Source: an uncultured delta proteobacterium (GTDB lineage Bacteria > Desulfobacterota > Binatia > UBA9968). Taken from it: a DNA stretch of 64,000 bases. Positions 86 through 51,264 of the stretch are shown piece after piece (positions within the stretch are counted from its first letter, which is position 1; each line of letters begins with the position of its first letter). The position numbers were made by a program, and so were the translations under genes. The notes under the pieces were generated by a model. The model searched no databases. It had not been told where the DNA came from and saw nothing but the letters and a program-made list of their open reading frames with translations. The DNA lies in contig CAVYTU010000017.1 of the NCBI GenBank assembly GCA_963771465.1, positions 1,024,001 through 1,088,000 of the forward strand, in the 5' to 3' direction.

Positions 86-189
86 GAAAAGTGCTGAGCA
101 ATGAGCACTGAGTCCTGAGGTCTGAATTGAATTAATCCTAAGCTCCGGGTTTATTCTCAGCACTCAGGACTTCGCACTCAGCACTTTTC
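86..189. repeat. Hairpin element with heptamer-tandem arms (GTGCTGA/TCAGCAC type)
   Basis: Left arm gaaaagtgctgagcaatgagcactgagtcctgag (86-119); right arm ctcagcactcaggacttcgcactcagcacttttc (156-189) is its imperfect reverse complement. Confidence 0.85.
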
Positions 190-193
190 ACTC

Positions 194-1801
194 TTATGGT
201 CCATGGTGCGTCGCCAACGGGCTCGCGTCAGCCAGCTCCATCAACTTTCTCGCTAACGCTTCGGTTAAATCGTGACGGTGTTTCTGTGCTTGCGGTTGCT
301 TCCACAGATTGTTCATCTCGTACGGGTCTGCGGCTAAATCGTAAAGCTCACCCCAATTCGCGCCTTCGTACAGAGTCAAGCGATGTTGTTTGGTGATGAG
401 ACTACGGGCGCGGAAGTTGTTATTGAATCCCATGTAGCCGCGGCGCTGGTGTTCCTCAATGACCAATGCGTCGTGTCCGGTTGGATCGCCGCTAACCGCC
501 TGCAGCAAACTGACTCCTTGCATGCCGTTCGGTTCGCCTAGGCCGGCGCGGTCGAGAATGGTGCTGGCGAGGTCGAGAGTGCCACATAATCCTGTGTTGA
601 CCAGGCCGCTGGTTTCAACATTCGGATCGCGCCAGATAAACGGCACGCGCACCAGGCCGCGATAGTGCAACGCGCCTTTTAACAGCAATTGGTGGTCGCC
701 CATGAAGTCGCCGTGGTCGCTGGTGAATATTACCACCGTGTCCTCATCGAGCCGGAGTGTTTTCAACCAGCCCAAGATGCTGCCAATGGCATCGTCGACC
801 ATCGTGATCATGCCGTAAGTCAGCGCGGTGGCTTCGCGGACTTCGCGCTCGGTGATGGCGAACGTGCGTTGACCGTCCCGGTTGGCTTTGTTGGCGGTGC
901 GCTCGTCGTAGAGTTTCTGCAAGTGGGGCGTGATCGGCCGCTCGCCCGAATTGAAAGACGGCGGCAGAGTAATCTGCTCGGGGTCATACATATCCCAGTA
1001 GCGTCCCGGCGGCGTGAAAGGATGGTGCGGATCGGGAAACGAGCATTGAATGAAAAATGGCTTGGACCGATCGCTGCGCGAATAGTTTTCCAAATACTTG
1101 ATCGTGCGTTCGGCGACGTACGCGGTTGGATACGAATCTGCCGGTATGCGTGTGCGCCACGCTTGCGGCGCGATGTAAGTATTTCCCGGCAATTGATTTT
1201 GCGCTCCACGCAATTCTTTAGCGTCGGAATGGCGCGCGTGGAGCCATCTTTCATAGTGACCGACCACTTGATCGCCGTGACCGACGGCGAGCTCGACATG
1301 GCCAAAACCGTAATAGGGCAAAGTCAATTCGAACGCAGGATCGTTTTGCCAGGTCGAGCGCAACTCTTGATCGTAGCGTCCGTGGCCGGGCCAGCTGCGG
1401 TCGGCTTCGCGTAAATGAGCCGGCGGCTGAATCTTGTTCGGGTCCGGCTCCGGCATGCCAATGGTCGGCGGATTGCCGCTGATACTTTGCAGATGACATT
1501 TGCCGAAGAGCACGGTGTCGTAACCCGCCGAGCGCATGACTTCGACGAACGTGGTTGCGTTGAGCGACAGCGGAATGCCATTTTGCCGCGCGCCGTGCAG
1601 CGACGGCATGCGTCCGGTCATGAGCGTGGCCCGGTTGGGCATGCAGATCGGCGTAGCGACGTAAAAATTCTCAAAGCGCGTACCGTTCTCGGCGAGCCGA
1701 TCGATGCTCGGCGTCTTGACGACTTTGTTGCCGTAACAGCCGAGATGGTCGGCGCGATGCTGGTCGGTGATGATTAAAAGAAAATTTGGCGGTTTCGCCA
1801 T
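194..1801 (-). CDS. Sulfatase (formylglycine-dependent, arylsulfatase/choline-sulfatase family)
   Basis: PNFLLIITDQHR, CxPxR motif (CMPNRATLMTG), FTSDHG, ELYDL..DPYE; start moved to ATG at 1801. Confidence 0.92.
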   Translation of the reverse strand: MAKPPNFLLIITDQHRADHLGCYGNKVVKTPSIDRLAENGTRFENFYVATPICMPNRATLMTGRMPSLHGARQNGIPLSLNATTFVEVMRSAGYDTVLFGKCHLQSISGNPPTIGMPEPDPNKIQPPAHLREADRSWPGHGRYDQELRSTWQNDPAFELTLPYYGFGHVELAVGHGDQVVGHYERWLHARHSDAKELRGAQNQLPGNTYIAPQAWRTRIPADSYPTAYVAERTIKYLENYSRSDRSKPFFIQCSFPDPHHPFTPPGRYWDMYDPEQITLPPSFNSGERPITPHLQKLYDERTANKANRDGQRTFAITEREVREATALTYGMITMVDDAIGSILGWLKTLRLDEDTVVIFTSDHGDFMGDHQLLLKGALHYRGLVRVPFIWRDPNVETSGLVNTGLCGTLDLASTILDRAGLGEPNGMQGVSLLQAVSGDPTGHDALVIEEHQRRGYMGFNNNFRARSLITKQHRLTLYEGANWGELYDLAADPYEMNNLWKQPQAQKHRHDLTEALARKLMELADASPLATHHGP

Positions 1802-1907
1802 GTCGTCGATTTCCGTTTCTCGCTCGATCCAAGTATCATAAAGCGACTTCACTGCGCTAGTAAGAAAATTCAGCCATGAGCCGCGGCGGATGTAGAATTT
1901 ATCACCG

Positions 1908-2981
1908 ATGATGAACGATTTTGTCGAGTACTGGGCTGCCGCTCAGCTCTTGTTGTCAGGCCGCAATCCCTACTCGCCCGAAGAGCTGTTGAAGCTAGAA
2001 TCCTCGGTTGGCTGGGCTGAGTCCAGCGCCTTGATTATGTGGAATCCGCCTTGGACTTTGACGTTCCTATGGCCCTTTGGCTTGATCAGTTACGATACCG
2101 CGCAATTCATCTGGTTTCTGTTCCATACTTTGATCGTTTTTCTTGGCGCGCAAGTTTTATGGGCTATTTGCGGCGGCGCCGTCGAGAAAAAACGGATGGC
2201 GGAAATCGCCGTTTTGACCTTCGCGCCGGTTTATTTCGTTCTCCTGATCGGTCAAATCGGGCCGTTGATCTTGCTCGGAGTCATCGGCTTTCTTGCCGCG
2301 GCAAAGAAAGAGGCGTGGGTGTGGGCGGGGGCAAGCTTGGTTTTGATTGCGATCAAGCCTCAACTGCTTTATCTGATATGGCTGGCATTTTTCTTTTGGG
2401 TCGTAAGGGAAAAATGCTGGCGTGCGCTGTTCGGTTTGATCAGTGCCGGTGCGATCGCTGCGCTGCTTCCGCTCGCTATCGATGGCGAGATTTATTCGCA
2501 ATACGTTCAGTTGTTCTCTGCTAGCGGCATCGTTCGTCCTACCGAATGGGCGACACCGAGTTTGGGTACGGCGCTGGGCGAGATCTTTAGTATCCGCGCC
2601 GCGTGGCTTCGCTGGCTGCCGACTCTGTTCGGCACTCTTTGGTTTCTCTGGTATGACCGCCGTCATTCGACCGTTTGGGATTGGCCGTCGCATTTGCCGC
2701 TTATTTCCTTGGTCTCGGTGGCCACGGCTAGCTTTGTCTGGACCTTCGATCAGGTGGTGCTGCTGCCGGCGCTTATCCAAGCGACAGTTTGGTGGGCAAA
2801 GACACGCGGCACTGCTGTGAGCAAAATGGTTCTCAGCAGTTATCTCATAATGATGGCTCTTGTGCTGCTGGCGAAAGTGTTTGTGCGAAACGACCTATGG
2901 TACTTTTGGCTGGCGCCGATGCTATTGCTCTGTTATTTGGCTTTGCAAAAAACCGGCGCGCGCCGGGTAAAAATCGTCTAA
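1908..2981 (+). CDS. Glycosyltransferase family 87 (DUF2029) membrane protein
   Basis: DFxxYW...G.NPY, WNPPW, GQ, IKPQ motifs; multiple hydrophobic helices. Confidence 0.8.
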   Translation: MMNDFVEYWAAAQLLLSGRNPYSPEELLKLESSVGWAESSALIMWNPPWTLTFLWPFGLISYDTAQFIWFLFHTLIVFLGAQVLWAICGGAVEKKRMAEIAVLTFAPVYFVLLIGQIGPLILLGVIGFLAAAKKEAWVWAGASLVLIAIKPQLLYLIWLAFFFWVVREKCWRALFGLISAGAIAALLPLAIDGEIYSQYVQLFSASGIVRPTEWATPSLGTALGEIFSIRAAWLRWLPTLFGTLWFLWYDRRHSTVWDWPSHLPLISLVSVATASFVWTFDQVVLLPALIQATVWWAKTRGTAVSKMVLSSYLIMMALVLLAKVFVRNDLWYFWLAPMLLLCYLALQKTGARRVKIV

Positions 2982-3052
2982 CCCCGCGCGCGCGCTCAAT
3001 TAGCTTGCTTGCCGATATTGGATCGTAGTACAGCCGAGCCGAGGAGAACTGC

Positions 3053-3568
3053 ATGATCGATGCGGCCGTAGTCATTCCTGTCTATCGAACTCGCGATGGC
3101 GAGCTTCACGTCGTGATGATTTTGCGCAATCCCGGCGGCGTGCACGGCGGCCAGATCGCTTTTCCCGGCGGCAAGCACGATCTCGCTGACGAGACGATGT
3201 TAGACACGGCGCTGCGGGAGCTACATGAAGAACTTGGATTGTCATCGGCGCGGGAAGACGTGCTTGCCGAACTGCCCATGGAACAGACGCGCACGACCGG
3301 TTACCGCGTCTTTCCTTATCTGGTGCGGATCACTGTGCCCGAGCAGTGGCAAATCGCCGAGCGCGAGGTCGCCGAGCTGTTCGACGTCAAGCTCAGCGAT
3401 CTTTTGCGCGCCGGCGCCCACGACAAAATGATCGAGCGCTTTCCAACTTGGCAGAAAGCGGAGCAGGTTTCATTTTATCAAATCGGTACCCATCGGCTCT
3501 GGGGCCTTTCGTATCGAATTCTTCATCCCATCATTCCGCGTTTGGCGGCGGGTGAGTGGGCCGTGTGA
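3053..3568 (+). CDS. Nudix hydrolase, CoA pyrophosphatase type
   Basis: HGGQIAFPGGK plus Nudix box TALRELHEELGL; LWG near the C-terminus. Confidence 0.9.
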   Translation: MIDAAVVIPVYRTRDGELHVVMILRNPGGVHGGQIAFPGGKHDLADETMLDTALRELHEELGLSSAREDVLAELPMEQTRTTGYRVFPYLVRITVPEQWQIAEREVAELFDVKLSDLLRAGAHDKMIERFPTWQKAEQVSFYQIGTHRLWGLSYRILHPIIPRLAAGEWAV

Positions 3569-3572
3569 AGTT

Positions 3573-3618
3573 GTGTTCGTGAGTCGTGTTCGTCGGACTG
3601 CAGTCTCGAACACGAAAC
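3573..3618. repeat. Degenerate hexamer-tandem hairpin (CGTGTT/AACACG)
   Basis: gtgttcgtgagtcgtgttcg...cgaacacgaa; same unit as 19040-19104 and 32340-32403. Confidence 0.5.
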
Positions 3619-3686
3619 CATGCGCGTATCGCAAAGAAGTGTTTTTAAATGTCGCAATAGCTTGGTTAGAGGGAAGGAGAATACCA

Positions 3687-4901
3687 ATGGACTTTAGTTT
3701 ACAGCAGGACACGCCTGAGATCGGCGAGTTCCGCCAAGAGGTGCGCAGTTGGCTGGCGGACAATATGAAAGGCAGCGAGCATCTGCGCTGGTCGGGCAAC
3801 TGGTCGACGCGGGAGAATGACGAGGAGTATACGTTTCGCCGCGCATTGGCTGGCAAGTTGGGAAAAAAACGCTGGCTCTTTCCCACTTACCCGGTGAAAT
3901 ATGGGGGCGCCGGTTTGAGCCTCGATCATCAGTTCGTTCTCGAAACCGAAATCGATCGTTATGGTCTATCGCTCGGCTCCGTGTTTTACACCTTAGCGCG
4001 ATTGGTCGCGCCGGCGGTGATGAAATTCGGCACCGAGGAACAGAAGACGGAGTTTTTGCCGCCGATGGCGCGCGGCGAATTGGCGGTGTGGCAAGTTCTC
4101 ACCGAGCCGCAAGGCGGTAGCGACGTGGCCAATTGCCAAACCAAAGCGATTCGCGACGGCGATCACTTTATCGTCAATGGCCAGAAAGTTCTGGTTGGCC
4201 ATCACCTGCCGCCGGATTATCTCTGGACTTTTGTTTGCACCAACCCGGCGGGCAAGCGCCATGAGAATTTAGGTTGGCTTTATATTCCCGCCAACTTGCC
4301 GGGGATCACGTTGCAACACATGCATCTCATGATGGGCATCAAGAATGCGATTTTCTTCGACAACGTTAAAGTGCCGGCGAAATATCTCGTCGGCGGCGAA
4401 AACAACGGCTGGAAAGTGGCGAACAGCTATCTTGAATTAGAGCATGGCGGCGGTGGCAGTGTCGCCGAACAGCCGCTGTTTAAGCGAATCATCGAACATT
4501 GTCAAAAAACTAATTTCGACGGCGAAAGCTTGATGGAAGATCAGGACATCCGCGATGAGGTCGCCGATATGTTGATCGATCTCGACGTGCAGCGGCTGAT
4601 GGGGCTGCGCAACTTCTGGCATCGCTACGTGCGCGAGCCGCATCCGTATGGTGGCCCGCAGTATCTTTACTTCCAGCGCATGGTGCGGCTGCGCAACTCC
4701 GAGAGGGTGCAAAGAATCCTCGGCTACGACGCATTGGTGCCGGACAATTCAGTCCACGAAGTGGCCGATTTCGAATACACGGTACGTAGCGGCCCCGGCT
4801 GGCTTCACGGCGGCGGCACGTTGGATACCGATCGGCTGATCATCGCGCGCCGCTTGGGTCTCGGCCGTCCGGCGCAAGAAGCCGCACCGACTACGGTGTA
4901 G
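3687..4901 (+). CDS. Acyl-CoA dehydrogenase family protein (alpha-like subunit)
   Basis: LTEPQGGSD, VNGQK, FFDNVKVP, GGENNGW; AAGGAG RBS before ATG 3687. Confidence 0.9.
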   Translation: MDFSLQQDTPEIGEFRQEVRSWLADNMKGSEHLRWSGNWSTRENDEEYTFRRALAGKLGKKRWLFPTYPVKYGGAGLSLDHQFVLETEIDRYGLSLGSVFYTLARLVAPAVMKFGTEEQKTEFLPPMARGELAVWQVLTEPQGGSDVANCQTKAIRDGDHFIVNGQKVLVGHHLPPDYLWTFVCTNPAGKRHENLGWLYIPANLPGITLQHMHLMMGIKNAIFFDNVKVPAKYLVGGENNGWKVANSYLELEHGGGGSVAEQPLFKRIIEHCQKTNFDGESLMEDQDIRDEVADMLIDLDVQRLMGLRNFWHRYVREPHPYGGPQYLYFQRMVRLRNSERVQRILGYDALVPDNSVHEVADFEYTVRSGPGWLHGGGTLDTDRLIIARRLGLGRPAQEAAPTTV

Positions 4902-4910
4902 AAGTGTTTA

Positions 4911-4996
4911 CCACAGAGAGCACAGAGAAAATGGAGTAGGGACGCGATTCATCGCGCCCTCGGAGTCGGAGATTTGACCGCAAAGGACGCAAAGAG
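4911..4996. repeat. Stack of short intergenic repeats: CACAGAGAG nonamers, a GTAG-type REP and CGCAAAG nonamers
   Basis: ccacagagagcacagagaa (4911-4929); gtagggacgcgattcatcgcgccct (4936-4960); cgcaaaggacgcaaagag (4979-4996). Confidence 0.65.
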
Positions 4997-5075
4997 GAAT
5001 TCGAAGTTGTCGATGCAGCCCCGTGGTTACCTTACCGATAGTGCCCACGGCGCTCAATCGAAAGGATAGGGACGT

Positions 5076-6212
5076 ATGGACTTAAAACTGAACGACGATC
5101 AAAACATGTTGAAGAAAGTGGCAGCGGATTTCGTTAAGGCAGAGGCGCCGTCGTATGTGATCACGGATTGGTACCAGAAAAAGCTTGCATTCATCCCGGC
5201 GCTTTACAAAAAAACCGCTGAGGTCGGCTGGCTCGGCATGATGGTGCCCGATGAGTTTGGCGGCGGCGGTACTTCCCGCATGGATTGCGCGGCGGTGTTT
5301 GAAGAACTCGGCCGCGGGCCGTTGCCGGGGCCGTATTTTTCCTGCGGCGTGTTGGCGGCCCAGTTGATTCTCGACGGCGGTTCGCCACAGCTCAAGAAAA
5401 CTTGGCTGGCAAAAATCTGCGACGGCAGCGCGGTGATTATCCCGGCGCTCTCCGACGATCAAATTCAGTTCGGACCGCGCTCGGTGCAGACGCGCGCGTT
5501 CAAATCGGGCGATGGTTACAACCTCACCGGCACCAAACGCTTCGTACAGGACGGCGCCGCGGCGAGTCATTTCATCGTCGCGGCGCGCGACGAAGTTGGC
5601 CAAGTGGTGTTGGCGCTGGTGGATCGAAACGCTCCGGGCGTGGGCGTGAATGTGGTCGACGGCTTCATGATCGGCGCGGTCGAAGTTAAGCTCGACGGTG
5701 TAACAGTTACCAAGGATGCAATGTTGAATGGCAGCGCTGGTGGCTGGTCCGTGGTGGAGTCGTCGCTAGGCAAAACTCTGCCGATTCTCTGTGCCTATAA
5801 AGTCGGCGCCTGCCAAGAAATTTTTGACATGACCAACGAATATACCCGCACGCGCGTGGTATTCGGCCAACCGATCGGGCGCTTTCAACGCGTCCAGGAT
5901 CATTGCGTCGACATTTCGATCCACCTCGATGGCGCGCGCTGGACGACCTACGAAACTGTGTGGAAGCTGGATAGTGGCGTTGAAGCGCGGGCGAGCGTGC
6001 ATCAAGCCAAAGCGGTGGCGAGCGAGGGCTATTATCAGTCCTGTAATTTTTCCCATATGGTCTTTGCCGGCGCCGGTACTGACTACAAGCATCCGCTGAT
6101 GGCGCACAGCGTGCTGGCGCATTCCTTGTATCAGTATCTTGGCACGCCGCTCTATCACAAGCGGGCGATGGTCGATGCGTTGTATCCGCGGACGGCCAGA
6201 AAAGCCGGTTAA
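5076..6212 (+). CDS. Acyl-CoA dehydrogenase family protein (short beta-like subunit)
   Basis: EELGR..LPGP, LTGTKRFV, R.VFGQPIGRFQRVQ; lacks the TEP.GSD motif. Confidence 0.88.
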   Translation: MDLKLNDDQNMLKKVAADFVKAEAPSYVITDWYQKKLAFIPALYKKTAEVGWLGMMVPDEFGGGGTSRMDCAAVFEELGRGPLPGPYFSCGVLAAQLILDGGSPQLKKTWLAKICDGSAVIIPALSDDQIQFGPRSVQTRAFKSGDGYNLTGTKRFVQDGAAASHFIVAARDEVGQVVLALVDRNAPGVGVNVVDGFMIGAVEVKLDGVTVTKDAMLNGSAGGWSVVESSLGKTLPILCAYKVGACQEIFDMTNEYTRTRVVFGQPIGRFQRVQDHCVDISIHLDGARWTTYETVWKLDSGVEARASVHQAKAVASEGYYQSCNFSHMVFAGAGTDYKHPLMAHSVLAHSLYQYLGTPLYHKRAMVDALYPRTARKAG

Positions 6213-6333
6213 AGGTGATGCTGAAGAGGTAGGAATCAACGCGAGACGGACGGTGAGATTATAGCCGTTTAAATTTTCCGATTTGCTTGCGATTGATGAA
6301 TATGTCGGGATGGGGGGAAGCCTTATTGCTGAA

Positions 6334-7905
6334 TTAGAATTTGACGAAAATCTCTTTCGCTTCATCGCCGGTTAACTGCTTGATTGTCGAAATCCTGTCG
6401 CTGAATTCCTTCAGCGTCCCGAGAGAAGCCGGGCCCATATCGATCAAGATGGAAAACAGCGAAAAGCCGAGCTTTTCCTTTTCTTCGCGAAAAGTTTCCG
6501 CCCATTGGGGATCGACCTGGCACTCGCCGTCGGTGATGAAGATGATGTCGCCCTTTTTGAAGCGCGATTCGCGCAAGCAATGAAGCGCGGCGTCGAGGGG
6601 TTTTTGAAAATCCGTGCCGCCGCCGGGAAAATATTCCGCCAAGTCCATGATCGTCTTGGTTTCGACCTCGTAACGGTCGCGCGGGTTCATGTCGAGGACT
6701 TGGAGCGGCGTCTCCGCGGAAGAGAAACAGATCGAGCGAAACAGGCGGCGCTGTTTGCGGGCGATTTCTAAAAGCGTGAGCGTTACGGCCTTGGACCAAA
6801 TCTCTTTGTCACCGGACATAGACGAGCTGCCATCGAGACAGACGATCATCGGCCCTTTGCCTTTTTCTTCGACGCCGCGGAGCGAGTATTGGATCAATTC
6901 CTGGTCGAGAAAACGGCGGTAGAAATCTTTTCGTAATACCGGATGGTGCAGGCTCAACATCTCGTGCGGCAGCAGGCGGTGGAGCGCGTCGCCTTGCTCG
7001 ACTTCGAGCAGCTCTTCGCTGGAGCGCTCGAAGACTTTTTTGCGCAACCCCTGGGCGTGAAACTTCATGCGTCCGACCATGCGGGCTAGTTTCTTTAGCT
7101 TCTCATTGCCCGCTAGACGCCGGCCGAGTTCGAGTTTCTGTCCCGGCGGTGACTTCTCGCCCGTACCGATCGTGTTACCCCAAGTTTCGGCTTCCTCGGT
7201 AGCATCTTCCAACTGCTGGGCGACTTTGATCGCTTCGGCCTGCATGCGATTGGCCGCTTGGGATTCGATCTTCTTGAGATCTTCCTTGAGCTGCTGAGTC
7301 TTATGGCGCAACAATGCCTCCGCGCCTTGAACTTCGCCGCCCATTTTTTCCTTGGCTTTTTGCAGCGCCTTTTTACCTTCTTCTGAGAGTTGATTTTCGG
7401 GGATCGTGTCGGCGTTGTCGTATTCTTCGATTTTCTCCGAGACGATTTCTTCCTGCTTTTGGATATCCCAGAGATCGCGCATGTCGCGCCGGTTTAGCAA
7501 TTTCTCTTCACGAATCATTGCCAGCAGCCGCTCACCGAGAAGTAACGTCGACAGGCCGGCGTGGGCTTCGTTCAACAATGTTTGCTCGCGGAGAAATTCA
7601 TATTGGGCGCCGTTGTGGATCGCTTGGAGAAAATTGCGATTGAGCAGCGCGCTGGGCAGAACTTCGCTGTCTGCGTAATACTTTGTGTTGTATTTGAATA
7701 GCAGAGAAAAAATATCTTGTAGCAGCGAACCGAAGTGAGGCAGCAGGGTAGAGCCCGCCGATTCTAGCTCGCGGAGCGATGGCGCTTCGGAGCGTAAATG
7801 CTCCCAGACGCGCCGATCGTAAGCGTCGTGCTCGATCCAAAAAGTGTTTTTCGGCAGCGGCTGGAAAACTCTTTTGACAGGCTTACTAGGCGAAGTAGGT
7901 GGCAT
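6334..7905 (-). CDS. VWA domain protein (ViaA/YieM-like)
   Basis: MIDAS motif DGSSSM, GGGTDF, IFITDGE in the C-terminal domain; downstream of a MoxR ATPase. Confidence 0.85.
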   Translation of the reverse strand: MPPTSPSKPVKRVFQPLPKNTFWIEHDAYDRRVWEHLRSEAPSLRELESAGSTLLPHFGSLLQDIFSLLFKYNTKYYADSEVLPSALLNRNFLQAIHNGAQYEFLREQTLLNEAHAGLSTLLLGERLLAMIREEKLLNRRDMRDLWDIQKQEEIVSEKIEEYDNADTIPENQLSEEGKKALQKAKEKMGGEVQGAEALLRHKTQQLKEDLKKIESQAANRMQAEAIKVAQQLEDATEEAETWGNTIGTGEKSPPGQKLELGRRLAGNEKLKKLARMVGRMKFHAQGLRKKVFERSSEELLEVEQGDALHRLLPHEMLSLHHPVLRKDFYRRFLDQELIQYSLRGVEEKGKGPMIVCLDGSSSMSGDKEIWSKAVTLTLLEIARKQRRLFRSICFSSAETPLQVLDMNPRDRYEVETKTIMDLAEYFPGGGTDFQKPLDAALHCLRESRFKKGDIIFITDGECQVDPQWAETFREEKEKLGFSLFSILIDMGPASLGTLKEFSDRISTIKQLTGDEAKEIFVKF

Positions 7906-7968
7906 TGGATCACTTACGCCAAGACGTGCACGGCATCAGTGTGCGTCATCCGACTCGGCGCTGCGCAT

Positions 7969-9087
7969 TCAAAACTGCTCGAGCATCTCTTTTTGCAGCT
8001 GCTCGATCTCGCCACGCACGGAATTCACCCGATCGAGTGGGCGGCCCATACGCTCGGCTTTTTCCATGATCTGGTCTACTTTGTTCATGATGTTTCTCAG
8101 TTTGGTGTGATATTCGATCAGCGCGCGGGCGCGCTCGTCGCTAGTGCGCCCCGGTTTAAGCGCGGCCTCGCGAATCTCGCGCGACTCGTAGAGCAACTCG
8201 GTGATTTCTTCTTCGTAGCCGAGCAATAGCTCGCGGATCGTGCCCCGCACCTGCTCATGCTCAGCGGGATCGCGCCAAAGGACATGCTCAAGAAAGAAGA
8301 GATGCTTCTCGTAAACTTCAGCTTCGCCGTCGAGGTAGGCGTAGGCTTGCAGCAGCGCCAGCGATTGACGGTAGCGGCGATCCGAGGCGAGGATATTTTT
8401 CTTGTTTAGCTCGCGCCGAATATCAGCGATGCCGCGGTAGACATGGGACGGAATGGTGATTTGTCCGGCCTGGGATTGAAGCTCGGTGAGTTCCGCCAGC
8501 GTGAGCGTGGTTCGCTCCGCCGCCTTCTGCGACTCCAGCATACGGAGAAAACGGAAATCCTCGGCGATGTAACCGACCACGAATCTGACGAGAAAACGGT
8601 CGTAGAGCGCGGTTAGCTCTTCTTCTTCCGGGAGTTCATTGCTGGCGCCGAAAAGCGTCAGGAGCGGCACTTTGACAATCTCTTTGCCGTTGTGAAACAG
8701 CCGTTCGTTGATCAAGGTGAGAATCGAATTCAAGATCGACGAGTTCGCTTTGAAAATCTCATCCAGAAAGGCGATATGCGCTTCCGGCAGTTTACGGTCG
8801 GTCACGCGGCGGTAGTCGTCCTGCTCCAATGCCTTCAGACTCACCGCCCCGAAAATCTCTTCCGGCGTGGTGAAACGCGTCAGCAGCCATTGAAAATAAT
8901 TCGCCCCCTCGATACGCCGGCACAGCTCGTCGGCGAGCATCGACTTGGCTGTGCCCGGCGGGCCGATGATCAACAAATGATGCGACGCCAGCAGCGCGGC
9001 GAGGGCACCGTCGATTAAGTCGGCGCGCTCTAAAAACGTTTGTTTAAGCTCGTCGCGAATCTTTTTCAGTTTTTCTTGGGCAGTCAT
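7969..9087 (-). CDS. MoxR-family AAA+ ATPase (RavA-like)
   Basis: Walker A GPPGTAKS, TRFTTPEEIFG, FLDEIFKANSSILN, GASNELP, ALYDRF. Confidence 0.92.
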   Translation of the reverse strand: MTAQEKLKKIRDELKQTFLERADLIDGALAALLASHHLLIIGPPGTAKSMLADELCRRIEGANYFQWLLTRFTTPEEIFGAVSLKALEQDDYRRVTDRKLPEAHIAFLDEIFKANSSILNSILTLINERLFHNGKEIVKVPLLTLFGASNELPEEEELTALYDRFLVRFVVGYIAEDFRFLRMLESQKAAERTTLTLAELTELQSQAGQITIPSHVYRGIADIRRELNKKNILASDRRYRQSLALLQAYAYLDGEAEVYEKHLFFLEHVLWRDPAEHEQVRGTIRELLLGYEEEITELLYESREIREAALKPGRTSDERARALIEYHTKLRNIMNKVDQIMEKAERMGRPLDRVNSVRGEIEQLQKEMLEQF

Positions 9088-9197
9088 GGGTAACAATTTT
9101 CTTCAGATTAACAAAGGAATAGTACAGAAACAATCAATAGACATTCCGCGGGCTTTTGGATATTGAGGATGTACTACTGCGGCAGGAGGTCGGTTCG

Positions 9198-10217
9198 ATG
9201 AAGAAACGCTGGATTCTGACTATCGTTCAGGTTTGCTCGATATTCTTATCGGGCGTGCCGCTCTTGGCTCAGGACGCCAAACTCATCGAAGCGGCGAAGA
9301 AGGAAGGCGGTAAGGTCGTTGTTTATGGGTCCATTGAAAACGACACCATGGATTTGATCGGCGCGGCGTTCAAAAAGAAGACAGGACTGGAGGTAGAGTT
9401 CTGGCGCGCGGCATCGACCAAAGTGATGGACCGCGTGCTCGGCGAAACCCGCACTGGGAAACCGCTTTACGACGTCGTGCTGACGACCACACCGCCGATG
9501 GAGTTCATGTTCAATGAGGGCGGGTTGTCCAAGTATGATTCGCCGTCGGCGAAATTTTTTCCCAAGGAAGTCATGCACCCCAACCTCGGCCCGCAGTATC
9601 GCAACGCCGTAATCGGTATCCTCTATCACTCCGGTATCGTCAAGGCGGCGGATGCGCCGAAATCGTTGGAAGACCTACTCAAGCCCCAGTACCGCGGCAA
9701 ACTCGTCATGCCCGACGCCAGTCTACACACGACGACGGCGCAGTGGTTGGCGAGTTTGCATAAAGTCATGGGCAGCAAGGAGCGCGCGGACAAATTCATC
9801 CGCGACCTAGCGGCGACTAAACCGCTGTTGGTGGATTCACTGACGCCGGCCGGCGAGCGAGTTACTACAGGCGAGACGCCCATCGGTATCGGTTTTCTCA
9901 AGAATGTCGTCTTCTACGGCCAGAAAGGCGTGCCGATCGATTACGTCAGGCTCGGTAAGTTTATGGGCGACGGTCAAGCTGTGGCGCTCGCGGCGAAACC
10001 GGTCCATGGCAATGCGGGTAAAGCATTTATCGATTATTTCATCGGCGAAGATGGACTCAAAATCATGGCCGGCATCGGCGAGTTCGTCACGCGCAAAGGC
10101 ATCTACCCACCAATCCCAGACGCCAATAAAATCGAATTGGTCGAGATGATCGACATGGATAAGAAGGCCTACACGGAAAAGATGGCCGAGTATAAGAAGA
10201 TATTCTTGCAGCAATGA
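9198..10217 (+). CDS. Extracellular solute-binding protein (Fe3+/thiamine-type ABC SBP)
   Basis: Signal peptide, AAKKEG.VVVYGS, PKSLEDLL.P.YRGK; AGGAGG RBS. Confidence 0.88.
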   Translation: MKKRWILTIVQVCSIFLSGVPLLAQDAKLIEAAKKEGGKVVVYGSIENDTMDLIGAAFKKKTGLEVEFWRAASTKVMDRVLGETRTGKPLYDVVLTTTPPMEFMFNEGGLSKYDSPSAKFFPKEVMHPNLGPQYRNAVIGILYHSGIVKAADAPKSLEDLLKPQYRGKLVMPDASLHTTTAQWLASLHKVMGSKERADKFIRDLAATKPLLVDSLTPAGERVTTGETPIGIGFLKNVVFYGQKGVPIDYVRLGKFMGDGQAVALAAKPVHGNAGKAFIDYFIGEDGLKIMAGIGEFVTRKGIYPPIPDANKIELVEMIDMDKKAYTEKMAEYKKIFLQQ

Positions 10218-10226
10218 TGGGTTAGT

Positions 10227-10268
10227 CGTTCAAAACGTTCAAGCCGTTCAAATAGTTGAAATCGTTTT
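10227..10268. repeat. Half element of nonamer tandem repeats (CGTTCAAnn)
   Basis: cgttcaaaa cgttcaagc cgttcaaat agttgaaat cgtttt; same units as the right arm at 11932-11971. Confidence 0.75.
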
Positions 10269-10292
10269 CACGGTTTATAGTGGAGGATTCTC

Positions 10293-11872
10293 GTGGTTGA
10301 TGGCGAATGGGACGTGATCCTGATCGGCGCGGGGCAAAATAATTTTGCTCTCGGCACTTACCTCGGCAAAGCCGGCTTGAAGACGGTGATTTGCGAGAGT
10401 CGGCTCGAGAACGGTGGACGGCTCGCCAGCGAAGAGATCACTCGGCCCGGTTACTGGCACAACACGCTCGCCTACTTCCAAGACAATCGCGAAGTGTCGC
10501 CGCCTTGGCGCGAGCTCGATTGGGACAACGGCCATCACGCTGAGTTCATTTCGCCGCCGGTGATCAGCTCGTTATTGCTTTCCGATGGCAGCTCGGTGTC
10601 GCAGCATCAGTCGCTGGAGCAGACGGTCACTTCGATCAAGAAAATCTCCACTCGAGATGGCGAAGCTTGGCGCGAAACTCACCATCGCTATTACCAACTG
10701 ATCCGCGATTATCTGATTCCCTACTATTACCAGGCGCCTCAAAGCGGCAAGACAATTTTGCAAAAGCTCGATTTCGCACCGGCGGGTAGAGAGTTCATAC
10801 GCCTTTGGCACATGACGCCGCGCCAAGTGGTGGATGAGCTGTTCGAGGCCGATGCGGTGAAGACGTTGGTACTTTCCCAGATGGCCATTCCGCGCGGCGT
10901 AGGCGTTGATTACGCCGGTGGTGGCATCGAAGTCTTAAAGATGATCGCCGGCGATGAAAGACCCGAGCTGGCGCGCGGCGGCGTCCCATTCCATCGCGCA
11001 AGTGTTGCAGCGCGCCTACGTTCACAACGGCGGGCAGATTCGCGCCGTGCATCACGTTGAAAAAATTTTCGTCAATGACGACGGACGCGCCGTGGGCGTG
11101 CGGTTACGCGACGGCCGCGAGTGGCAAGCGCGCTTGGCGGTGGTTTCCAATAGCGATCCTTATTCCACTTTCGTTGAAATGGTTGGCGAGGATTATCTGC
11201 CGCGGACGTTTGTCGAACGGGTTAAAGACATCCAGGTCGATGAGTTTTCATATTTCCAAGTTCACGTCGCTTTGAAAGCGCCGGTGCGTTACGCGCTTCA
11301 CGAAGCGAACGATCCGTCCGTCGGTCAGGCGATGAACGTGAACATCGGACCCGAGAAGCCATCGGATATTGACGAGCATGTGGCAAGAGATTCGCGCTGG
11401 TGAGTTTCCGGAGCATGCTTGTCTGCATGCGATATGTCCGACCGCGTTCGATCCATTGCAGGCGCCGCGCGGCAAACACGCCGCGTCGGTGTTCATGCCG
11501 GTGCCGTTTCAATTGAAGGGCAAAAAGCCGGAGGATTGGGTCAAGCTCAAGAACGGTTTCATGGACAGCGTTTTGAAAATCTGGCGCCGCTGCGCGACCA
11601 ATCTCACCGATGAGAACATCGAAATGAAAGTAGCCATGGAGCCGCACTATATGTCCGGCCGCTGGCCCAACATGCGCCGCGGTTCGGTCTGGGTGGCGCG
11701 CAAAATTCCGACGCAGATGGGTGAGCAGCGGCCGATCGAACAAATCTCCGACTACCGCACGCCGATCGCGGGACTTTATCAAGTCGGCGCGGCGATGCAT
11801 CCAGCCGATGCGGTCATCGCGGGCTCGGGGTATAACTGCTGGCGGGCGATGAAAGAGGATTTGAAACTTTAG
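10293..11872 (+). CDS. Phytoene-dehydrogenase-like FAD-dependent oxidoreductase (two apparent frameshifts, near 10980 and 11375)
   Basis: Rossmann motif IGAGQNN, FDPLQAPRGKH, YRTPIAGLY, HP...G.GYN; spread over three overlapping ORFs. Confidence 0.8.
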
Positions 11873-11880
11873 TAATCTCT

Positions 11881-11971
11881 GAAACGTTTCGAACGGCTTG
11901 AACGATTGCCACGATTTGAACCACGCCGTCCTTCAAGTCGTTCAAATAGTTCAAAACGTTCAGGCCGTTTC
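11881..11971. repeat. Hairpin element with nonamer-tandem arms (TGAACG/CGTTCA)
   Basis: Left gaaacgtttcgaacggcttgaacgattgccacgatttgaac; right ttcaagtcgttcaaatagttcaaaacgttcaggccgtttc. Confidence 0.8.
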
Positions 11972-11983
11972 GGACCGGATGTT

Positions 11984-13607: not shown

Positions 13608-13615
13608 AGACTAGT

Positions 13616-13694
13616 TGGAATATTGGAGTAATGGAGTGGTGGAGTGATGGGTCCGGTACCCAATACCCCAGTACTCCAACACTCCATCACTCCA
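13616..13694. repeat. Hairpin element with octamer-tandem arms (TGGAGTnn/nnACTCCA)
   Basis: tggaatat tggagtaa tggagtgg tggagtga tggg ... ccca atacccca gtactcca acactcca tcactcca. Confidence 0.88.
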
Positions 13695-13704
13695 GGGGGC
13701 GGTT

Positions 13705-14449
13705 ATGAGATTGGCTGATCGAGTTGCCATCGTCACCGGCGGCGCGCGCCATATCGGCGCGGCGTATTGCCGACGCTTAGCCGAAGAAGGCGCCGCGGTG
13801 GTCATCGCCGATATACTCGACGGTGAGCCGGTGGCGCAGGAGATTCGGGCGAAAGGTGGCAAAGCGTTGGCGCTCAAAGATCGATGTGTCGAATGAAGAC
13901 GACACAAACCGCATGGCTGCCGAAGCGGTGAAAGCATTCGGCCGGATCGATATCCTCGTCAACAACGCGGCGATCTTCATCAACATCCAACGCCATCCGT
14001 TTTATGAAATCACTGGCGAGGAGTGGGACAAGGTCTCCGCCGTGAATATCAAAGGCCCGTTTCTCTGCGCCAAAGCGGTCTTCCCGCAGATGAAAGAGCA
14101 GAAGAGCGGCAAGATTATCAACATCTCGTCGTCGACCGCGTACTGGGGCACGCCCAACTTTCTCCACTACGTGGCGTCGAAAGCCGCACTTATCGGGATG
14201 ACCCGGTCATTGGCGCGTGAAGTCGGCGCGTACGGCATTTGCGTCAACGCAATCGCACCGGGTTTAGTCGAACACGAAGGGCAGAACGCTCCCAAGGCGC
14301 TCACGGAATTGCAGCTCAAAGAGAGATCCATCAAGCGGCTGCAAACGCCTCAAGATTTAATGGGCACGCTCGTGTTTCTATGTTCGTCTGACAGCGATTT
14401 CATGACGGGGCAATCGATTGTGGTGGATGGCGGAAGTATTTTTCATTGA
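13705..14449 (+). CDS. Short-chain dehydrogenase/reductase (frameshift near 13880)
   Basis: TGGARHIG, NNAA, YxxxK (YVASK), VDGG. Confidence 0.9.
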
Positions 14450-14641
14450 CTATGTCATGGTTTCACATGCCGAACAGTCGCCTGTTCCGCGACGTAAAGA
14501 TTGAGATACAGGCGCGCCTTTGCTGGGAAGGGGAGATTGAGCGAGGGGCGACAGATGCTACTTGAGCAACTGCCTCATGCGATCGGTTGGTTTGACCCCA
14601 TGAAAGTTTGATAGAGGGAGCTTTAGGCGTGTTGGAAATAC

Positions 14642-14665: not shown

Positions 14666-14675
14666 TTCTGACCTC

Positions 14676-17827: not shown

Positions 17828-17833
17828 ATATTT

Positions 17834-19871: not shown

Positions 19872-19877
19872 TTCTTC

Positions 19878-45534: not shown

Positions 45535-46525
45535 TTGAAAAGAACGATTGTTCTCTTCGTAGTTACATTCTTGCTTCTGGCGATTATCCATCCAGGTCAT
45601 GCGCAGCAGTCCGGGAAAATCTTCCGCATCGGTTTCCTGGATAGAAGCACTGCTTCCGGTAACGCGGTCCTCGTGAAGGCGTTCCTGCAAGAGCTGAGCA
45701 AGCTTGGATGGATTGAGGGAAAGAATTTCACCATCGAGTACCGGTTTGGGGAGGCAAAAGCCTGAGCGCCGGCCTGAGCTTGCGGCGGACTTGGTTCGTC
45801 TTAAGGTCGATCTGATCGTGGTCTACAGGGACGCGCCGGCGACAGCGGCGAAGAACGCGACTACTACCATACCCATCGTGATGGCGAACGTTGGGGACCC
45901 TGTGGGTGAAGGTCTGGTTGCCAGTCTGGCGCGGCCAGGAGGCAATGTCACCGGTTTCTCGAGTTTAGCGCCCGAGCTAAATACCAAAAGGCTAGAGATA
46001 CTCAAGGACGCGGTCCCTAAGCTCCTGCGAGTTGGACTTCTGCGGTTGGGGGTAGGCGCCATAGCAGCAGACCTCCAACTGAAAGAGCTCAGACCTGCGG
46101 CTTGGCACCTGAAGCTCAAATTGGAGGAGATCGAGACTCAAGTCGACGCCAAAGGTTTAGAGAGCGCCTTTAAAACCGCAAAGCAGAAACAGGTCGGGCG
46201 ATTATGACGACCGCCACTCGCCGCTTTTTCGCCGAAAGAAAGCGGATCGTCGAGCTTGCCGGCAAATACCGGTTGCCTGCTATTTACTTCGCAGAAGGGG
46301 TATGTCGATGAGGGCGGCCTCATGTCCTACGGGGCGGACTACGATGACATGTACCGCAAGGCCGCCCACTACGTAGACAAAATTCTCAAGGGAACGAAAC
46401 CTGCTGATCTGCCTGTACAGCAGGCGACGAAGTTTGAATTCGTCATTAACCTCAAGGCGGCGAAACAAATCGGTCACACGATTCCGTACGAACTGTTGGC
46501 GCGGGCGAATCAAGTGATCAAGTGA
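45535..46525 (+). pseudogene. ABC_sub_bind (PF04392-type) substrate-binding protein with about three frameshifts; pseudogene or sequence error
   Basis: LGWIEGKN..IEYR, TTTIPIVM...DPV..GLVASLARPGGNVTG, GGLMSYG, VDKILKG.KPADLPV.Q.TKFE.VINLK.AK.IG. Confidence 0.7.
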
Positions 46526-46528
46526 AGA

Positions 46529-46616
46529 AGGCAACGGGCATCAGGCAGTAGGCAGTAAGAAGTTTGGATTCTGGTCTTTGCGTTTTAGTTCGACAATCAA
46601 AATCCAAAATGAAATC
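46529..46616. repeat. Heptamer tandem repeats (AGGCAGT) plus a degenerate TTTGGA/TCCAAAA hairpin
   Basis: aggcaac gggcatc aggcagt aggcagt ... tttggatt ... caatcaaaatccaaaat. Confidence 0.55.
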
Positions 46617-48875: not shown

Positions 48876-48886
48876 GAAACGCACGC

Positions 48887-50018
48887 ATGGCTCGTTCTTA
48901 TCAGCAATCAAGATATCGAGCAGGTGCTCGATATGAACATTTGCCTCCAAGCGATCGAGGAAGGCATCAAGGAATATTATCGTGGCGATGCGACTTGCCG
49001 GCCGCGCATCGATGTTTGGGCGCCGTCCGGCGATCCGCGCGGCTATTATCAGTGGGGCTCGATGGAAGGCACCAGCCGGCGCTACGGCGTGTTCGCGACG
49101 CGGATCAAGTCCGATATCGCTTACTGGACCGAAGGCGAAGGCGGCGTCAAGACGCAAGAAAAATATTGCCAACGCCCGGGGTTATTCTGCGGTTTGATTC
49201 TTTTGTTTAGCACGGAGAACGGCGAGCCGCTGGCGGTGATGAACGATGGCTATTTGCAGCATATGCGCGTTGGCGCCACCGCCGGCATCGCAGCTAAATA
49301 TCTGGCCCGGGAAGACGCCGATACCGTCGGCATGATCGGTTCAGGCAGCATGGCGTGGACTCACGCGCTGGCGTTCGCCGAAGTGCGCAACATAAAGCGC
49401 ATCCGCGTTTTTAGTCCGACACCAAAGAATCGCGAAACCTATGCTGGTAATTTGTCGGCGCGGCTGGGTATAGATATCGTGCCGGTGGACTCGGTGGTTG
49501 AAGCGGTCAAAGGCGCGCAAATCGTCTCGGCCTGTACGGATTCCATCGTGCCGGTCATTCCAGGCCGCTCCATCGAGGCCGGCGCGTTTGTGACCACTGT
49601 GAAGGGCACCGTCGAACTCGACAAATCATCCGTCGAACGCATCCGCACGTTTTACACCTTCGCGCCAAACAGCGACGCGATTTCACATTCGCAGCCAGGC
49701 GAAGCGGCCTCACGAGCGCAAAAAATCTCGGGTACGCACCGTGCGTACGTGGCGGGACAAGCGGAAGATCTGGCGCGCATTCCTGAAGTTGAGCGCGAGG
49801 GCGGTTTCGACAAGCGCAAGCTTGTCAGCTTCAAAAATCTTTTAAACGGTCAAGATCCCGGCCGGCGCGACGCGGAGGAGATTTTAGCCGTCGGCGGCAA
49901 TCAAATTCAGGGTATTCAGTTTGCTTCGGTCGGCGGCGCGACTTATCGTTTGATCAAGGAAAAGGGGTTGGGCCGGCAGTTTCCGACGGATTGGCTGTTG
50001 CAGGATGTGAGAAACTGA
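48887..50018 (+). CDS. Ornithine cyclodeaminase/mu-crystallin family protein (1-nt shift just after the ATG)
   Basis: ATG-G-CTC GTT CTT ATC AGC AAT aligns with the paralog N-terminus; LQHMRVGA, IGSGSMA. Confidence 0.85.
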
Positions 50019-50043
50019 CAACCAAGATTGGTAGAGCGGGCCG

Positions 50044-51264
50044 ATGGTGACATTTAGTATTTTAGATTTTCGATTTTGGATTTTGGATTGGGGAATCAGG
50101 CGGATCGGTCGGAGCTTCTCCGACAATCTAAAATCCAAAATCCAAAATCTAAAATGGGTAGGGCTGGCTGCAACTTGGTTTGTGGCAGCGACTCTGCATG
50201 CCGCAGAGCCTGCAAAATGGCAGGCCGAATGGGAACGCACGGTGTCGGCGGCGGAGAAGGAAGGACAGCTGGTTGTCTATATCGGTGGCTATGGCGCGCT
50301 TATCGAGAGCGGCGTATTTCAGAAGGCCTATCCGAAGATCAAGATCACGCACATCACCGGCGCGGGCACCGATCTCACGCAGCGTATTTCAGCGGAGCGG
50401 CGCGCCGGCAAGTATCTCGCCGACGTCTACAACGGCGGTGGCAACTCGCTTCATCAGGTTCTCTACACCGGAAAGATGATCGACTCGATCAAGTCGGCGT
50501 TGATCCTGCCGGAAGTATTGGACACGGCCAAATGGTGGGAGGGCAAACACAAATACGCCGACAAAGAGGGCCAACATATTTTCGTTTACGAAGGCAATGT
50601 GTCGGCCGGCGCCGGGGCAGGTTACAATACCCAGCTGCTCGATCCGCGCGAGTACAAAACTTATTGGGACTTCCTCAACCCCAAGCTCAAGGGAAAACTT
50701 ATTTCCACCGATATTCGCCGGGTGCGCGGCGCCGGCATCCCGTGGCAGTTTCTCTATTATCATCCCGATCTCGGCCCGAAATATTTGCGCCGTCTGTTTG
50801 GCGAGATGGATGTGACGATGAGCGCCGATCTGCGCCAGGCTGGAGACTGGCTGGCGACGGGAAAGTTCACTCTTTGCATGCCGATCCAAGGCGGTGTTGT
50901 CAGTAAGGCGAAGAGTCAGGGCTTGCCTGTGGACCAATTCGATTCTTACCACTTCAAGGAAGGCGTCAATCTTTCATCCGCCTTCGGTTCGCTGGCGTTG
51001 ATGAACCGCGCGCCCCATCCCAATGCCGCCAAGGTGTTTATCAATTGGCTATTGTCGCGCGAAGGGCAGACGTTGTTCCAAAAAGTGATTAGTCTAACCG
51101 GCGATCCGCGCAACTCGCGCCGTATCGACGTCCCCAAAGACCACATCCCGGTCGATGAACAGCGGCGCGACAAAATGACCTATTTCGACACCGACGATCC
51201 CGACACCAAGGATTTGACGCCGGCAATGAAATTGTTGGACGAGATCGTGCCGCTAAAAAAATAG
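50044..51264 (+). CDS. Extracellular solute-binding protein with a repeat-derived N-terminus
   Basis: W....AAEKEG.L, APHPNAAKVFINWLLSREGQ, NSRRIDVPKD. Confidence 0.87.
   Translation: MVTFSILDFRFWILDWGIRRIGRSFSDNLKSKIQNLKWVGLAATWFVAATLHAAEPAKWQAEWERTVSAAEKEGQLVVYIGGYGALIESGVFQKAYPKIKITHITGAGTDLTQRISAERRAGKYLADVYNGGGNSLHQVLYTGKMIDSIKSALILPEVLDTAKWWEGKHKYADKEGQHIFVYEGNVSAGAGAGYNTQLLDPREYKTYWDFLNPKLKGKLISTDIRRVRGAGIPWQFLYYHPDLGPKYLRRLFGEMDVTMSADLRQAGDWLATGKFTLCMPIQGGVVSKAKSQGLPVDQFDSYHFKEGVNLSSAFGSLALMNRAPHPNAAKVFINWLLSREGQTLFQKVISLTGDPRNSRRIDVPKDHIPVDEQRRDKMTYFDTDDPDTKDLTPAMKLLDEIVPLKK
50059..50155. repeat. Hairpin element with heptamer-tandem arms (TTTTGGA/TCCAAAA) inside a CDS
   Basis: a-ttttaga-ttttcga-ttttgga-ttttgga-ttg ... 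caa-tctaaaa-tccaaaa-tccaaaa-tctaaaa-t; 32-bp arms with 2 mismatches. Confidence 0.9.

Follow-up and report, generated by a model that had tools for sequence, protein, structure and literature searches.

Hairpins with arms of tandem short words at gene junctions of Binatia genomes

Arrays of short tandem words, in many cases paired with an inverted array nearby, have been described from several groups of bacteria. In Geobacter metallireducens, Aklujkar et al. 2009 reported 24 pairs of sites made of four tandem octamers (GTTGCTYN), 21 pairs made of three tandem copies of TCTCCGTS[Y], and eight pairs made of five tandem heptamers (MTYCTGA); the two members of a pair stand on opposite strands, a variable distance apart, some sites fall into two classes, one lacks a partner, the proB-proA spacer holds one pair, and all were presented as “putative global regulator binding sites” and read as of IHF/HU type (PMC2700814). 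The short tandemly repeated repetitive (STRR) sequences of cyanobacteria are 7-bp repeats that are said to form hairpins, for example in the hupS-hupL spacer; their function is given as unknown, although a role in raising transcript stability was proposed (PMC2670836), and for one Nostoc spacer a TTGTCAG array was tabulated together with a CTGAC-type array (PMC2408588). Beggiatoaceae, cyanobacteria, and Bacteroidetes have intergenic arrays of two to six copies of the heptamer TAACTGA, without a known mechanism, which stand immediately upstream of start codons, with 169 sets in direct and one in inverted arrangement (PMC4679880). Here, we analyze hairpins of closely similar design in a 64,000-nt chromosome segment (the window) of an uncultured soil bacterium of the lineage Binatia. 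For Binatia or Binatota, our literature search found no paper on such elements. The design itself is not new: it has been described twice, in cyanobacteria and in Geobacter, and explained never, and Binatia provide an additional case.

Tandem-word hairpins in the window and its relatives

The window has 56% G+C, carries ordinary metabolic and transport genes, and leaves about 10% of its length outside open reading frames (ORFs) of at least 100 amino acids. Relatives were retrieved with the UbiD-like protein encoded at 16382-17827 as the query, which gave 80 loci (L001-L080; 1.14 Mb), nearly all of them from metagenome-assembled genomes (MAGs) that carry the label Candidatus Binatia or the older one of Deltaproteobacteria. 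The top match is 95% identical, and none of the genomes is identical. Together with the window (W in counts across genomes), 1.2 Mb were examined; the census covers the UbiD neighbourhoods of 80 relatives. Arrays were called with Tandem Repeats Finder (TRF) at periods of 5-10 nt and at least 2.5 copies, and an inverted partner was sought within 700 nt. Fold z scores and ranks were taken from 200 shuffles per locus, with both the plus and the minus strand folded as RNA; a score given for a locus without a strand is that of the plus strand.

Inverted pairing of such arrays is well beyond chance in the window. Eleven of its 15 arrays had an inverted partner, within the 700 nt, that scored above every one of 20 distant control stretches, and 9 of the 15 were paired at a fixed threshold, versus a mean of 0.03 paired arrays (maximum, 1; mean number of arrays, 1.92) in 100 dinucleotide-preserving shuffles. 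A 50-kb stretch of E. coli K-12 gave three arrays, none paired. The shared architecture proposed in a preliminary description of the window is therefore upheld, and its frequency is not that of shuffled sequence. The four window arrays that lacked a partner were, apart from the one at 10227, G+C-rich repeats inside genes. Across the 80 loci, 239 arrays were found, 89 with an inverted and 16 with a direct partner, and the merged catalogue, window included, holds 66 hairpins in 1.2 Mb. Many loci hold no hairpin at all, so that density differs between lineages. The hairpins are real, and they are a lineage trait.

Of the 11 loci initially listed for the window, all of which lie between Pfam-supported coding regions, seven are strong tandem-arm hairpins, one is the single arm that it was said to be, two are weak, and one (46529-46616) is not a hairpin. 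TRF called arrays of period 6-9 at every one of them except 3573, where a 13-mer of 1.9 copies was called. Six of the strong hairpins are short enough to fold, with z scores of -3.5 to -8.4 on the better strand and none of 200 shuffles as stable. The first, at 86-189 (arms 86-119 and 156-189, 34 nt, 76% complementary), has about four heptamers per arm (NNNCTGA / TCAGNNN) and z scores of -6.8 on the plus and -6.2 on the minus strand; it has convergent genes on either side and begins 1-2 nt past a stop codon. A GTTCAA-class hairpin with its TTGAAC arm first stands at 11881-11971 (arms 11892-11924 and 11937-11969, 33 nt, 79%; z = -4.3). The TGGAGTNN-class hairpin at 13616-13694 (arms 13624-13651 and 13667-13694, 28 nt, 86%; z = -3.5 plus, -5.1 minus) spans from 8 nt past a conserved stop codon (13605-13607) to the Shine-Dalgarno sequence of a short-chain dehydrogenase gene. 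Six nucleotides past the UbiD stop codon follows a second GTTCAA-class hairpin (17834-17903; z = -4.5 plus, -5.6 minus), with similar hairpins after UbiD in L004, L007, L025, L037, and L041. A CGTG-class hairpin between convergent genes (19040-19104; z = -4.0 plus, -4.6 minus) forms the inner part of an approximately 200-nt insert with an outer palindrome, and the ATTTTGG / CCAAAAT-class hairpin at 50052-50155 (arms 50059-50090 and 50124-50155, 32 nt, 94%) reaches z scores of -6.6 on the plus and -8.4 on the minus strand. The seventh strong locus is a long-core element (15843-16387) with AATGGAG-type heptamer arms (15843-15880 and 16350-16387, 38 nt, 89%) and 469 nt between them; it is too long for folding and has no z score.

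The two weak loci both belong to the CGTG class. One (3573-3618) is short, with about three units in the left and two in the right arm, and lies between a NUDIX stop codon and an acyl-CoA dehydrogenase start codon (z = -1.6; 16 of 200 shuffles at least as stable); the other (32340-32403) begins 3 nt past a stop codon (z = -2.2; 3 of 200 shuffles at least as stable). The lone array at 10227-10268, 2.9 copies of a GTTCAA-class 9-mer that follow a solute-binding protein gene past its stop codon, shows no pairing partner and a z score of -0.75. The locus at 46529-46616 is a chimera of an AGGCAGT-type array on the left and an AAAATC-type array on the right, which are not complementary, and was rejected as a hairpin because two unrelated adjoining arrays do not pair (z = +0.5; 140 of 200 shuffles at least as stable). 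Beyond the 11, an extra strong hairpin at 59495-59598 (40-nt arms, 78%; z = -5.4 plus, -7.0 minus) has arms that are not clearly tandem, and its CCCTC-type words resemble the CCCTCN class of L030 and L043. It lies upstream of a solute-binding protein domain.

Across the catalogue, the unit period is 7 nt in 25 hairpins, 8 nt in 18, 9 nt in 15, 6 nt in 6, and 10 nt in 2. Arms have a median length of 29 nt and a G+C content of 0.43, versus 0.56 for the sequences overall, and middles a median length of 29.5 nt, ranging from 0 to more than 400 nt. The module is an array of three to five copies of a core of 4-7 nt that is followed by 1-4 variable bases; its usual form is an inverted array pair around a short variable middle, and lone arrays and chimeras of two classes also occur. 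Unit sequences had at first been taken to be unrelated, which is contradicted by core classes that recur at several junctions and in several genomes: GTTCAA (15 hairpins in 13 loci), TGGAGT (7), CGTG (6), CGCAAAG (5), AAAATC (5), GTTCCA (4), and some rarer ones. Within the window alone, GTTCAA is found at 10227, 11881, and 17834, CGTG at 3573, 19040, and 32340, AAAATC at 50059 and in the right half of 46529, and (A)TGGAG at 13616 and 15843. Nor does a grouping into heptamers, octamers, and nonamers survive, since GTTCAA cores follow each other at distances of 7, 8, 9, and 10 nt (14, 22, 23, and 2 cases, respectively) and groups by period thus divide a single class.

In the folds of five of the six classes, core bases were paired at 81-94% and other arm bases at 61-70%. 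The stems are rows of short helices with small internal loops between them, and with cores that pair and spacers that pair poorly, the arms are two arrays of one word, not exact inverted copies of each other. The middles share a different signal. The tetramer CGGA/TCCG was counted 58 times versus 17.8 expected, an approximately threefold enrichment, in the 57 loops of the window and L001-L080; it was present in 30 of these loops versus 14.0 +/- 3.0 in random segments (maximum, 24 in 500 trials), and TCCGAA was found 12 times versus 0.9 expected. CGGA/TCCG often adjoins the arms, and does so across different unit classes. Combinations of elements were also observed: a TGGAGT array paired with a GTTCAAC array in L021, and one hairpin nested within another in L034. 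The right arm of an L036 hairpin (~6970-7000) holds a 26-nt insert that equals the loop of a hairpin in L029 (11486-11516; compared also with L031, 11521-11551), and this insert may itself be a tiny element, nesting in arrays of heptamers.

The likeness to the Geobacter metallireducens sites extends to three to five tandem units of 7-9 nt, pairing on opposite strands at variable distance, several classes per genome, intergenic positions within operons, and the occurrence of chimeric (46529-46616, L021) and unpaired (10227-10268) cases. The two sets differ in organism and in consensus units, only the CTGA-type heptamers at 86-189 resembling, by eye, the third Geobacter class, and insertion sequences at a fixed distance, reported for Geobacter, were not seen at the Binatia hairpins, the comparison being with the published description (PMC2700814). 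With STRR sequences as described, the hairpins share an intergenic location, a tandem unit of roughly 7 bp, and pairing with an inverted array, and they differ in having periods of 6 to 10 nt and in phylum, the relatives of the window being Binatia/Deltaproteobacteria MAGs and not cyanobacteria. TAACTGA repeats, in the account cited, are likewise short intergenic heptamer arrays, whereas the Binatia hairpins are mostly inverted pairs placed just past stop codons.

A possible connection to cyanobacteria came from plasmid searches, in which the ATTTTGG hairpin of the window matched 14 plasmids, 13 of them cyanobacterial; searches with four other hairpin classes gave no match. On one Nostoc plasmid, the ATTTTGG/CCAAAAT unit forms an inverted pair with a 39-nt middle. 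Three of 11 arrays were paired in 50 kb of that plasmid and none of nine in 50 kb of pCC7120alpha (L081), versus the 9 of 15 in the window; by eye only, one 9-mer pair was seen in pCC7120alpha (30546-30625). As cyanobacteria have many heptamer classes, the single heptamer in common may be a coincidence. By analogy, the best reading is that the Binatia hairpins are of the same kind as STRR hairpins and the paired sites of Geobacter metallireducens.

Gain, loss, and retention at orthologous junctions

Orthologous junctions, when aligned with relatives, are found both empty and filled, as the preliminary description had anticipated, and class swaps were found as well. Past the gene that ends at 11872, eight relatives have GTTCAA- or GTTCCA-type hairpins with unrelated middles. 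The first arm there reads either GTTCAA or TTGAAC, two forms that inversion cannot interconvert, and the junction is empty in L009 and L029, with 12 nt resembling one and a half units retained in L009. The junction that holds the lone array at 10227-10268 is empty in L023 and different in L014 and L016. Past the stop codon at 13605-13607, six relatives have a TGGAGT hairpin, L021 has its chimera, and L027 and L029 are empty. The junction past the UbiD paralogue is empty in L033, L035, and L039 and is filled by CCCTCN in L030 and L043, by ATTTTNG in L029, L031, and L036, by CGTGNN in L044, and by another unit in L034.

Such changes are also seen between close relatives. In L037 and L041, which are 90.4% identical, a convergent junction is occupied by a CGCAAAGG element in the former and by an AAATCCG element in the latter, and a second element of L037 is lacking in L041. 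A CGTG hairpin of L031 is replaced in L036, and the composite insert of about 200 nt around the 19040 hairpin is absent in L003, where the two genes abut. Elements are thus shown to be gained, lost, or replaced by another class at one junction within about 10% nucleotide divergence. One class has a further property: the three CGCAAAGG copies within L037 have a common internal core of about 90 nt and occur in both orientations, in the manner of a MITE (a miniature transposable element with inverted repeats).

Two other kinds of insert were observed at these junctions. A second palindromic family of about 130-170 nt, with ends GCTGCTGAAAA ... TTTTTGAGCAGC, is represented in L014 at 16869-17038 and 19765-19898, distinguishes one genome from a 95% identical relative that lacks it (L014 versus L020), and is also found after UbiD in L013, L014, L015, and L020; the outer part of window 18975-19160, around the 19040 hairpin, looks like a member of it. 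At the junction orthologous to window 10217-10293, L014 has a 210-nt insert (3406-3615) with inverted ends and TTAGC direct repeat flanks, which is absent in L023 (5599-5605).

Alongside this turnover, some hairpins have been kept for long. The TGGAG hairpin stands at one junction in seven genomes. Each arm there retains three to five intact cores, although the four-fold degenerate sites of the adjacent dehydrogenase gene are close to saturation: relatives with the hairpin agree with the window at only 35-55% of them. Orthologous arms differ by whole units. In an alignment of the seven orthologous 13616-type copies, 6 of 23 pairs were changed on both sides, for example from G-C to A-U in L009 and L024. 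With seven sequences and a variable number of units, this is suggestive of pairing, or arm-to-arm likeness, being actively kept; both-sided changes would also result if one arm were copied onto the other or if both arms conformed to a single motif.

Mobile repeats, transcript elements, or binding sites

The explanation that we favour, with middling confidence, is that the hairpins are dispersed, non-autonomous foldback DNA repeats of Binatia, the arms of which are changed by slippage, which are tolerated where they separate a stop codon from a ribosome-binding site, and in which pairing is kept once they are fixed. Arms would grow and shrink by replication slippage. Spread would depend on a trans-acting DNA enzyme that recognizes structure or array and is not encoded by the element itself, with the arrays resembling the sub-terminal repeat ends of transposons. 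New copies would survive only in the few bases that separate a stop codon from the next ribosome-binding site, and after fixation, pairing might be maintained via selection or arm-to-arm correction. In mRNA, the copies would form long imperfect stem-loops at cistron boundaries, and these would probably be processing or stability elements (RNase III-type substrates), not terminators.

How such repeats relate to known mobile families can be stated in part. Repetitive extragenic palindromes (REPs) are short, G+C-rich palindromes with a GTAG-type head, and their doublets (REPINs) are moved by RAYT transposases. The hairpins had been said to fit neither the REP nor the MITE definition. They are indeed not REPs, their arms being A+T-rich and tandem, and the GTAG-type REPs and RAYT-like gene of the lineage are separate from them. 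The CGCAAAGG class, with its conserved core in both orientations, is in this respect MITE-like, and the general design was already in print (PMC2700814, PMC2670836). Like MITEs and REPINs, the hairpins are small, gene-less, and intergenic with inverted ends, are present or absent at orthologous sites, and persist vertically for long at some sites; unlike them, they end in arrays of a short word and not in unique sequence. Internal sequence, conserved as in MITEs among the three CGCAAAGG copies of L037, is unrelated between orthologues in the GTTCAA and TGGAG classes.

Several points weigh against the foldback explanation. Middles are unrelated in most classes, so the hairpins do not derive from a single master element by simple copying. 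Long retention and the both-sided changes (6 of 23 pairs) fit a host function as well as they fit a selfish element. The RAYT-like gene of the relatives is flanked by its own GTAG-type REPs and not by arrays. No target-site duplication was seen at the ends of CGCAAAGG copies or in comparisons of filled and empty junctions, a negative that is not firm given the diverged flanks, and no clean insertion boundary was seen in the same material. No transposase or full-length insertion sequence with matching ends was noticed in the 1.2 Mb, in which no systematic search for them was made. The catalogue of 66 hairpins is uncurated and has at least three doubtful entries (L001:16301, L019:15300, and L075:360), genes in the relatives' loci are crude longest-ORF calls, and all that is said here at the level of the transcript we infer.

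Next comes the tentative alternative, rather unlikely in our judgment, that the hairpins are host RNA elements, that is, intercistronic stem-loops selected for a role in the transcript, with arms that lengthen by duplication of sequence that is already paired. Possible roles would be protection of the upstream 3' end, processing by RNase III, and uncoupling of the expression of neighbouring cistrons. Retention at the same junctions despite nearly saturated four-fold sites and the pairs changed on both sides are what this explanation expects, and position can be read in its favour too. At co-directional junctions, the upstream stop codon and the start of the 5' arm are a median of 9.5 nt apart (at most 16 nt in 27 of 44), and in many cases the 3' arm extends to the next Shine-Dalgarno sequence, which bears out the placement near stop and start codons initially reported. 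Such placement would also follow from a need for every insert to leave the ribosome-binding site intact and is, alone, no proof of function. Co-directional junctions hold 51 of 65 hairpins, a share (78%) that is near the background of 653 of 937 junctions (70%). A role in transcript stability has been proposed for STRR hairpins (PMC2670836).

Tests of strand gave no support to a role in RNA. Among 44 hairpins for which the transcribed strand could be guessed, the sense fold was more stable than the antisense fold in 24 and less stable in 20 (Wilcoxon P = 0.38), and G-U pairs numbered 122 on the sense versus 110 on the antisense strand, without strand bias; likewise, loops showed no sense-strand bias of Shine-Dalgarno-like GGAG or of CGGA. 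The suggestion of a protein-bound RNA motif gains nothing from these tests, and since sense and antisense do not differ, the palindrome is symmetrical at the DNA level. A T-tract followed the hairpin in 3 of 44 cases on the sense and in 8 of 44 on the antisense strand, and a terminator consensus scan of positions 1-20000 called no hairpin save a sub-stem at 90-109, so intrinsic (Rho-independent) terminators were rejected. The hairpins are symmetrical DNA palindromes and not intrinsic terminators. Growth in situ, moreover, leaves unexplained why the same cores are found at unrelated junctions and in other genomes, and why one class replaces another between genomes that are 90% identical.

It is improbable, though conceivable, that the hairpins act as duplex DNA, each array being a row of sites for a nucleoid protein or global regulator, as proposed (IHF/HU) for Geobacter metallireducens. 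A conserved core with variable spacers would suit such sites, as would inverted pairs at variable distance, which the published account reports (PMC2700814), and both-sided changes are expected here too if both arms follow one motif. At least 10 core classes would, however, demand as many proteins; a core spacing of 7-10 nt within one class is poor for phased binding; classes are swapped between close relatives while the flanking genes stay unchanged; and the location is past stop codons, not at promoters.

A similarly low probability attaches to a broader form of the foldback idea, in which Binatia, Geobacter, and filamentous cyanobacteria would share one structure-recognized mobile system, a bacterial counterpart of the Foldback elements of eukaryotes. 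In Foldback-type transposons such as Drosophila FB and Galileo, the long inverted ends consist of tandem sub-repeats, the middle is variable, and arm length differs from copy to copy; these transposons are eukaryotic, measure hundreds to thousands of bases, and are served by known transposases. The hairpins are like them in design only, at a smaller scale. In a shared system, an activity borne by host or element would recognize short-word arrays, or build them, at the two ends of a stretch of DNA, and the four-helix-bundle copy described below would be a full-length relative of the intervening sequences of 23S rRNA. Such a system would explain independent arms with the same core, lone arrays, chimeras, and the occurrence of ATTTTGG in two phyla.

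The long-core element at 15843-16387, between an amidohydrolase gene and the UbiD gene, raises a further possibility. As the preliminary description had stated, this one copy carries a four-helix-bundle gene (15988-16345, plus strand): the residues encoded by 16083-16316 match PF05635 (1.2e-16) and TIGR02436 (6.3e-18), with the N- and C-terminal parts of the frameshifted gene in other frames. The closest precedent, by analogy, is the intervening sequence of 23S rRNA, described as a selfish stem-loop with a 28-bp inverted-end stem and an S23p four-helix-bundle ORF in its loop, which is cut by RNase III and in which decay of the ORF has been reported (PMC4990558). Terminal inverted repeats and a stem around a few hundred bases with a PF05635 gene are common to both, but the window element, alone among the hairpins in this likeness, lies between protein-coding genes and not in an rRNA helix, and its arms are tandem heptamers.

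That this copy is the autonomous form, and the gene-less hairpins its miniature dependants, we consider very unlikely. Its 38-nt array arms around a gene of the family found in the loops of the selfish rRNA stem-loops speak for it, as does plasmid pCC7120alpha of Nostoc, where five copies of the heptamer TCTGCCC begin no more than 26 nt after an annotated four-helix-bundle gene (3776-4185). The gene is, however, confined to a single orthologous junction in three genomes of the 1.2 Mb (W, L001, and L003), and nothing links it to the other hairpins; its AATGGAG arm class was seen nowhere else, and the gene is frameshifted in the window. Upstream of UbiD, L003 has the gene with a matching right arm, and L001 has its 3' half only, in a 228-nt core. 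The family, moreover, has no known DNA-breaking or DNA-joining activity, and the gene is not a known transposase.

At the same junction, five relatives keep the left array, and the place of the remainder is taken by a gene for a RAYT-like Y1 transposase, accompanied by GTAG-type REPs of its own (L004, 9150-10003; L012, 9140-10025; L018, 9160-10003; L007, 9090-10003; L002, ~3000-3985). The RAYT-like gene contains one GTAG-type REP palindrome in frame. These REPs were found in 4 of 82 loci, flank the gene in L004, L012, and L018, and are absent from the window, and a link of the hairpins to the REP/RAYT system of the lineage was rejected on these grounds. A small ORF between two L019 hairpins was likewise rejected as an element gene, being an ordinary RidA-family gene.

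Chance or an assembly artefact, for which the apparent frameshifts in the window might speak, has a negligible probability and is already refuted by 9 paired arrays versus a mean of 0.03 in shuffles and by the recurrence of the design in dozens of independently assembled relatives and on the finished Nostoc plasmid.

Surrounding genes and meaning for the lineage

Besides the four-helix-bundle gene, several window genes are split across frames where relatives have one continuous gene: that at 10293-11872, read as three ORFs; the C terminus of an FAD oxidoreductase (region 13530-13607), where the window ORF stops at 13540 and the conserved stop codon is at 13605-13607; the N terminus of the short-chain dehydrogenase (13705-13823); and an ABC substrate-binding gene (45704-46525). 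The cause is either an indel-prone assembly or a large number of pseudogenes; with several apparent frameshifts, base-level accuracy in the window is imperfect.

Gene order around the hairpins also varies. In L001, L004, L008, L012, L018, and L025, a TIR-domain gene is directly followed by an M24 peptidase gene (window 54848), and by comparison with this adjacency the window has about 36 kb between the two (18972-54806), a segment the left edge of which is the same in L003. Within it, positions 50044-54722 hold a row of four tandem paralogous solute-binding protein genes. In many of the loci L030-L045, a small conserved ORF that starts MGQAVEVTCPKC and is zinc-ribbon-like lies about 60-120 nt after the UbiD paralogue. 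A search of the whole window with Rfam at gathering score gave no match, rRNA included.

Reports of hairpins made of tandem words go back decades in cyanobacteria and to 2009 in Geobacter, with no origin, mover, or function known. Binatia offer a natural experiment, with many related genomes in which some junctions are empty, filled, or swapped to another class and others have outlasted the saturation of synonymous sites. Existing data (whole MAGs, population reads, and metatranscriptomes) make it testable whether the hairpins are selfish or of use, whether their action is at the level of DNA or RNA, and which proteins co-occur with them. Meanwhile, the hairpins occupy most short intergenic spacers of the lineage, and they will mislead the prediction of start codons, operons, and terminators in it.

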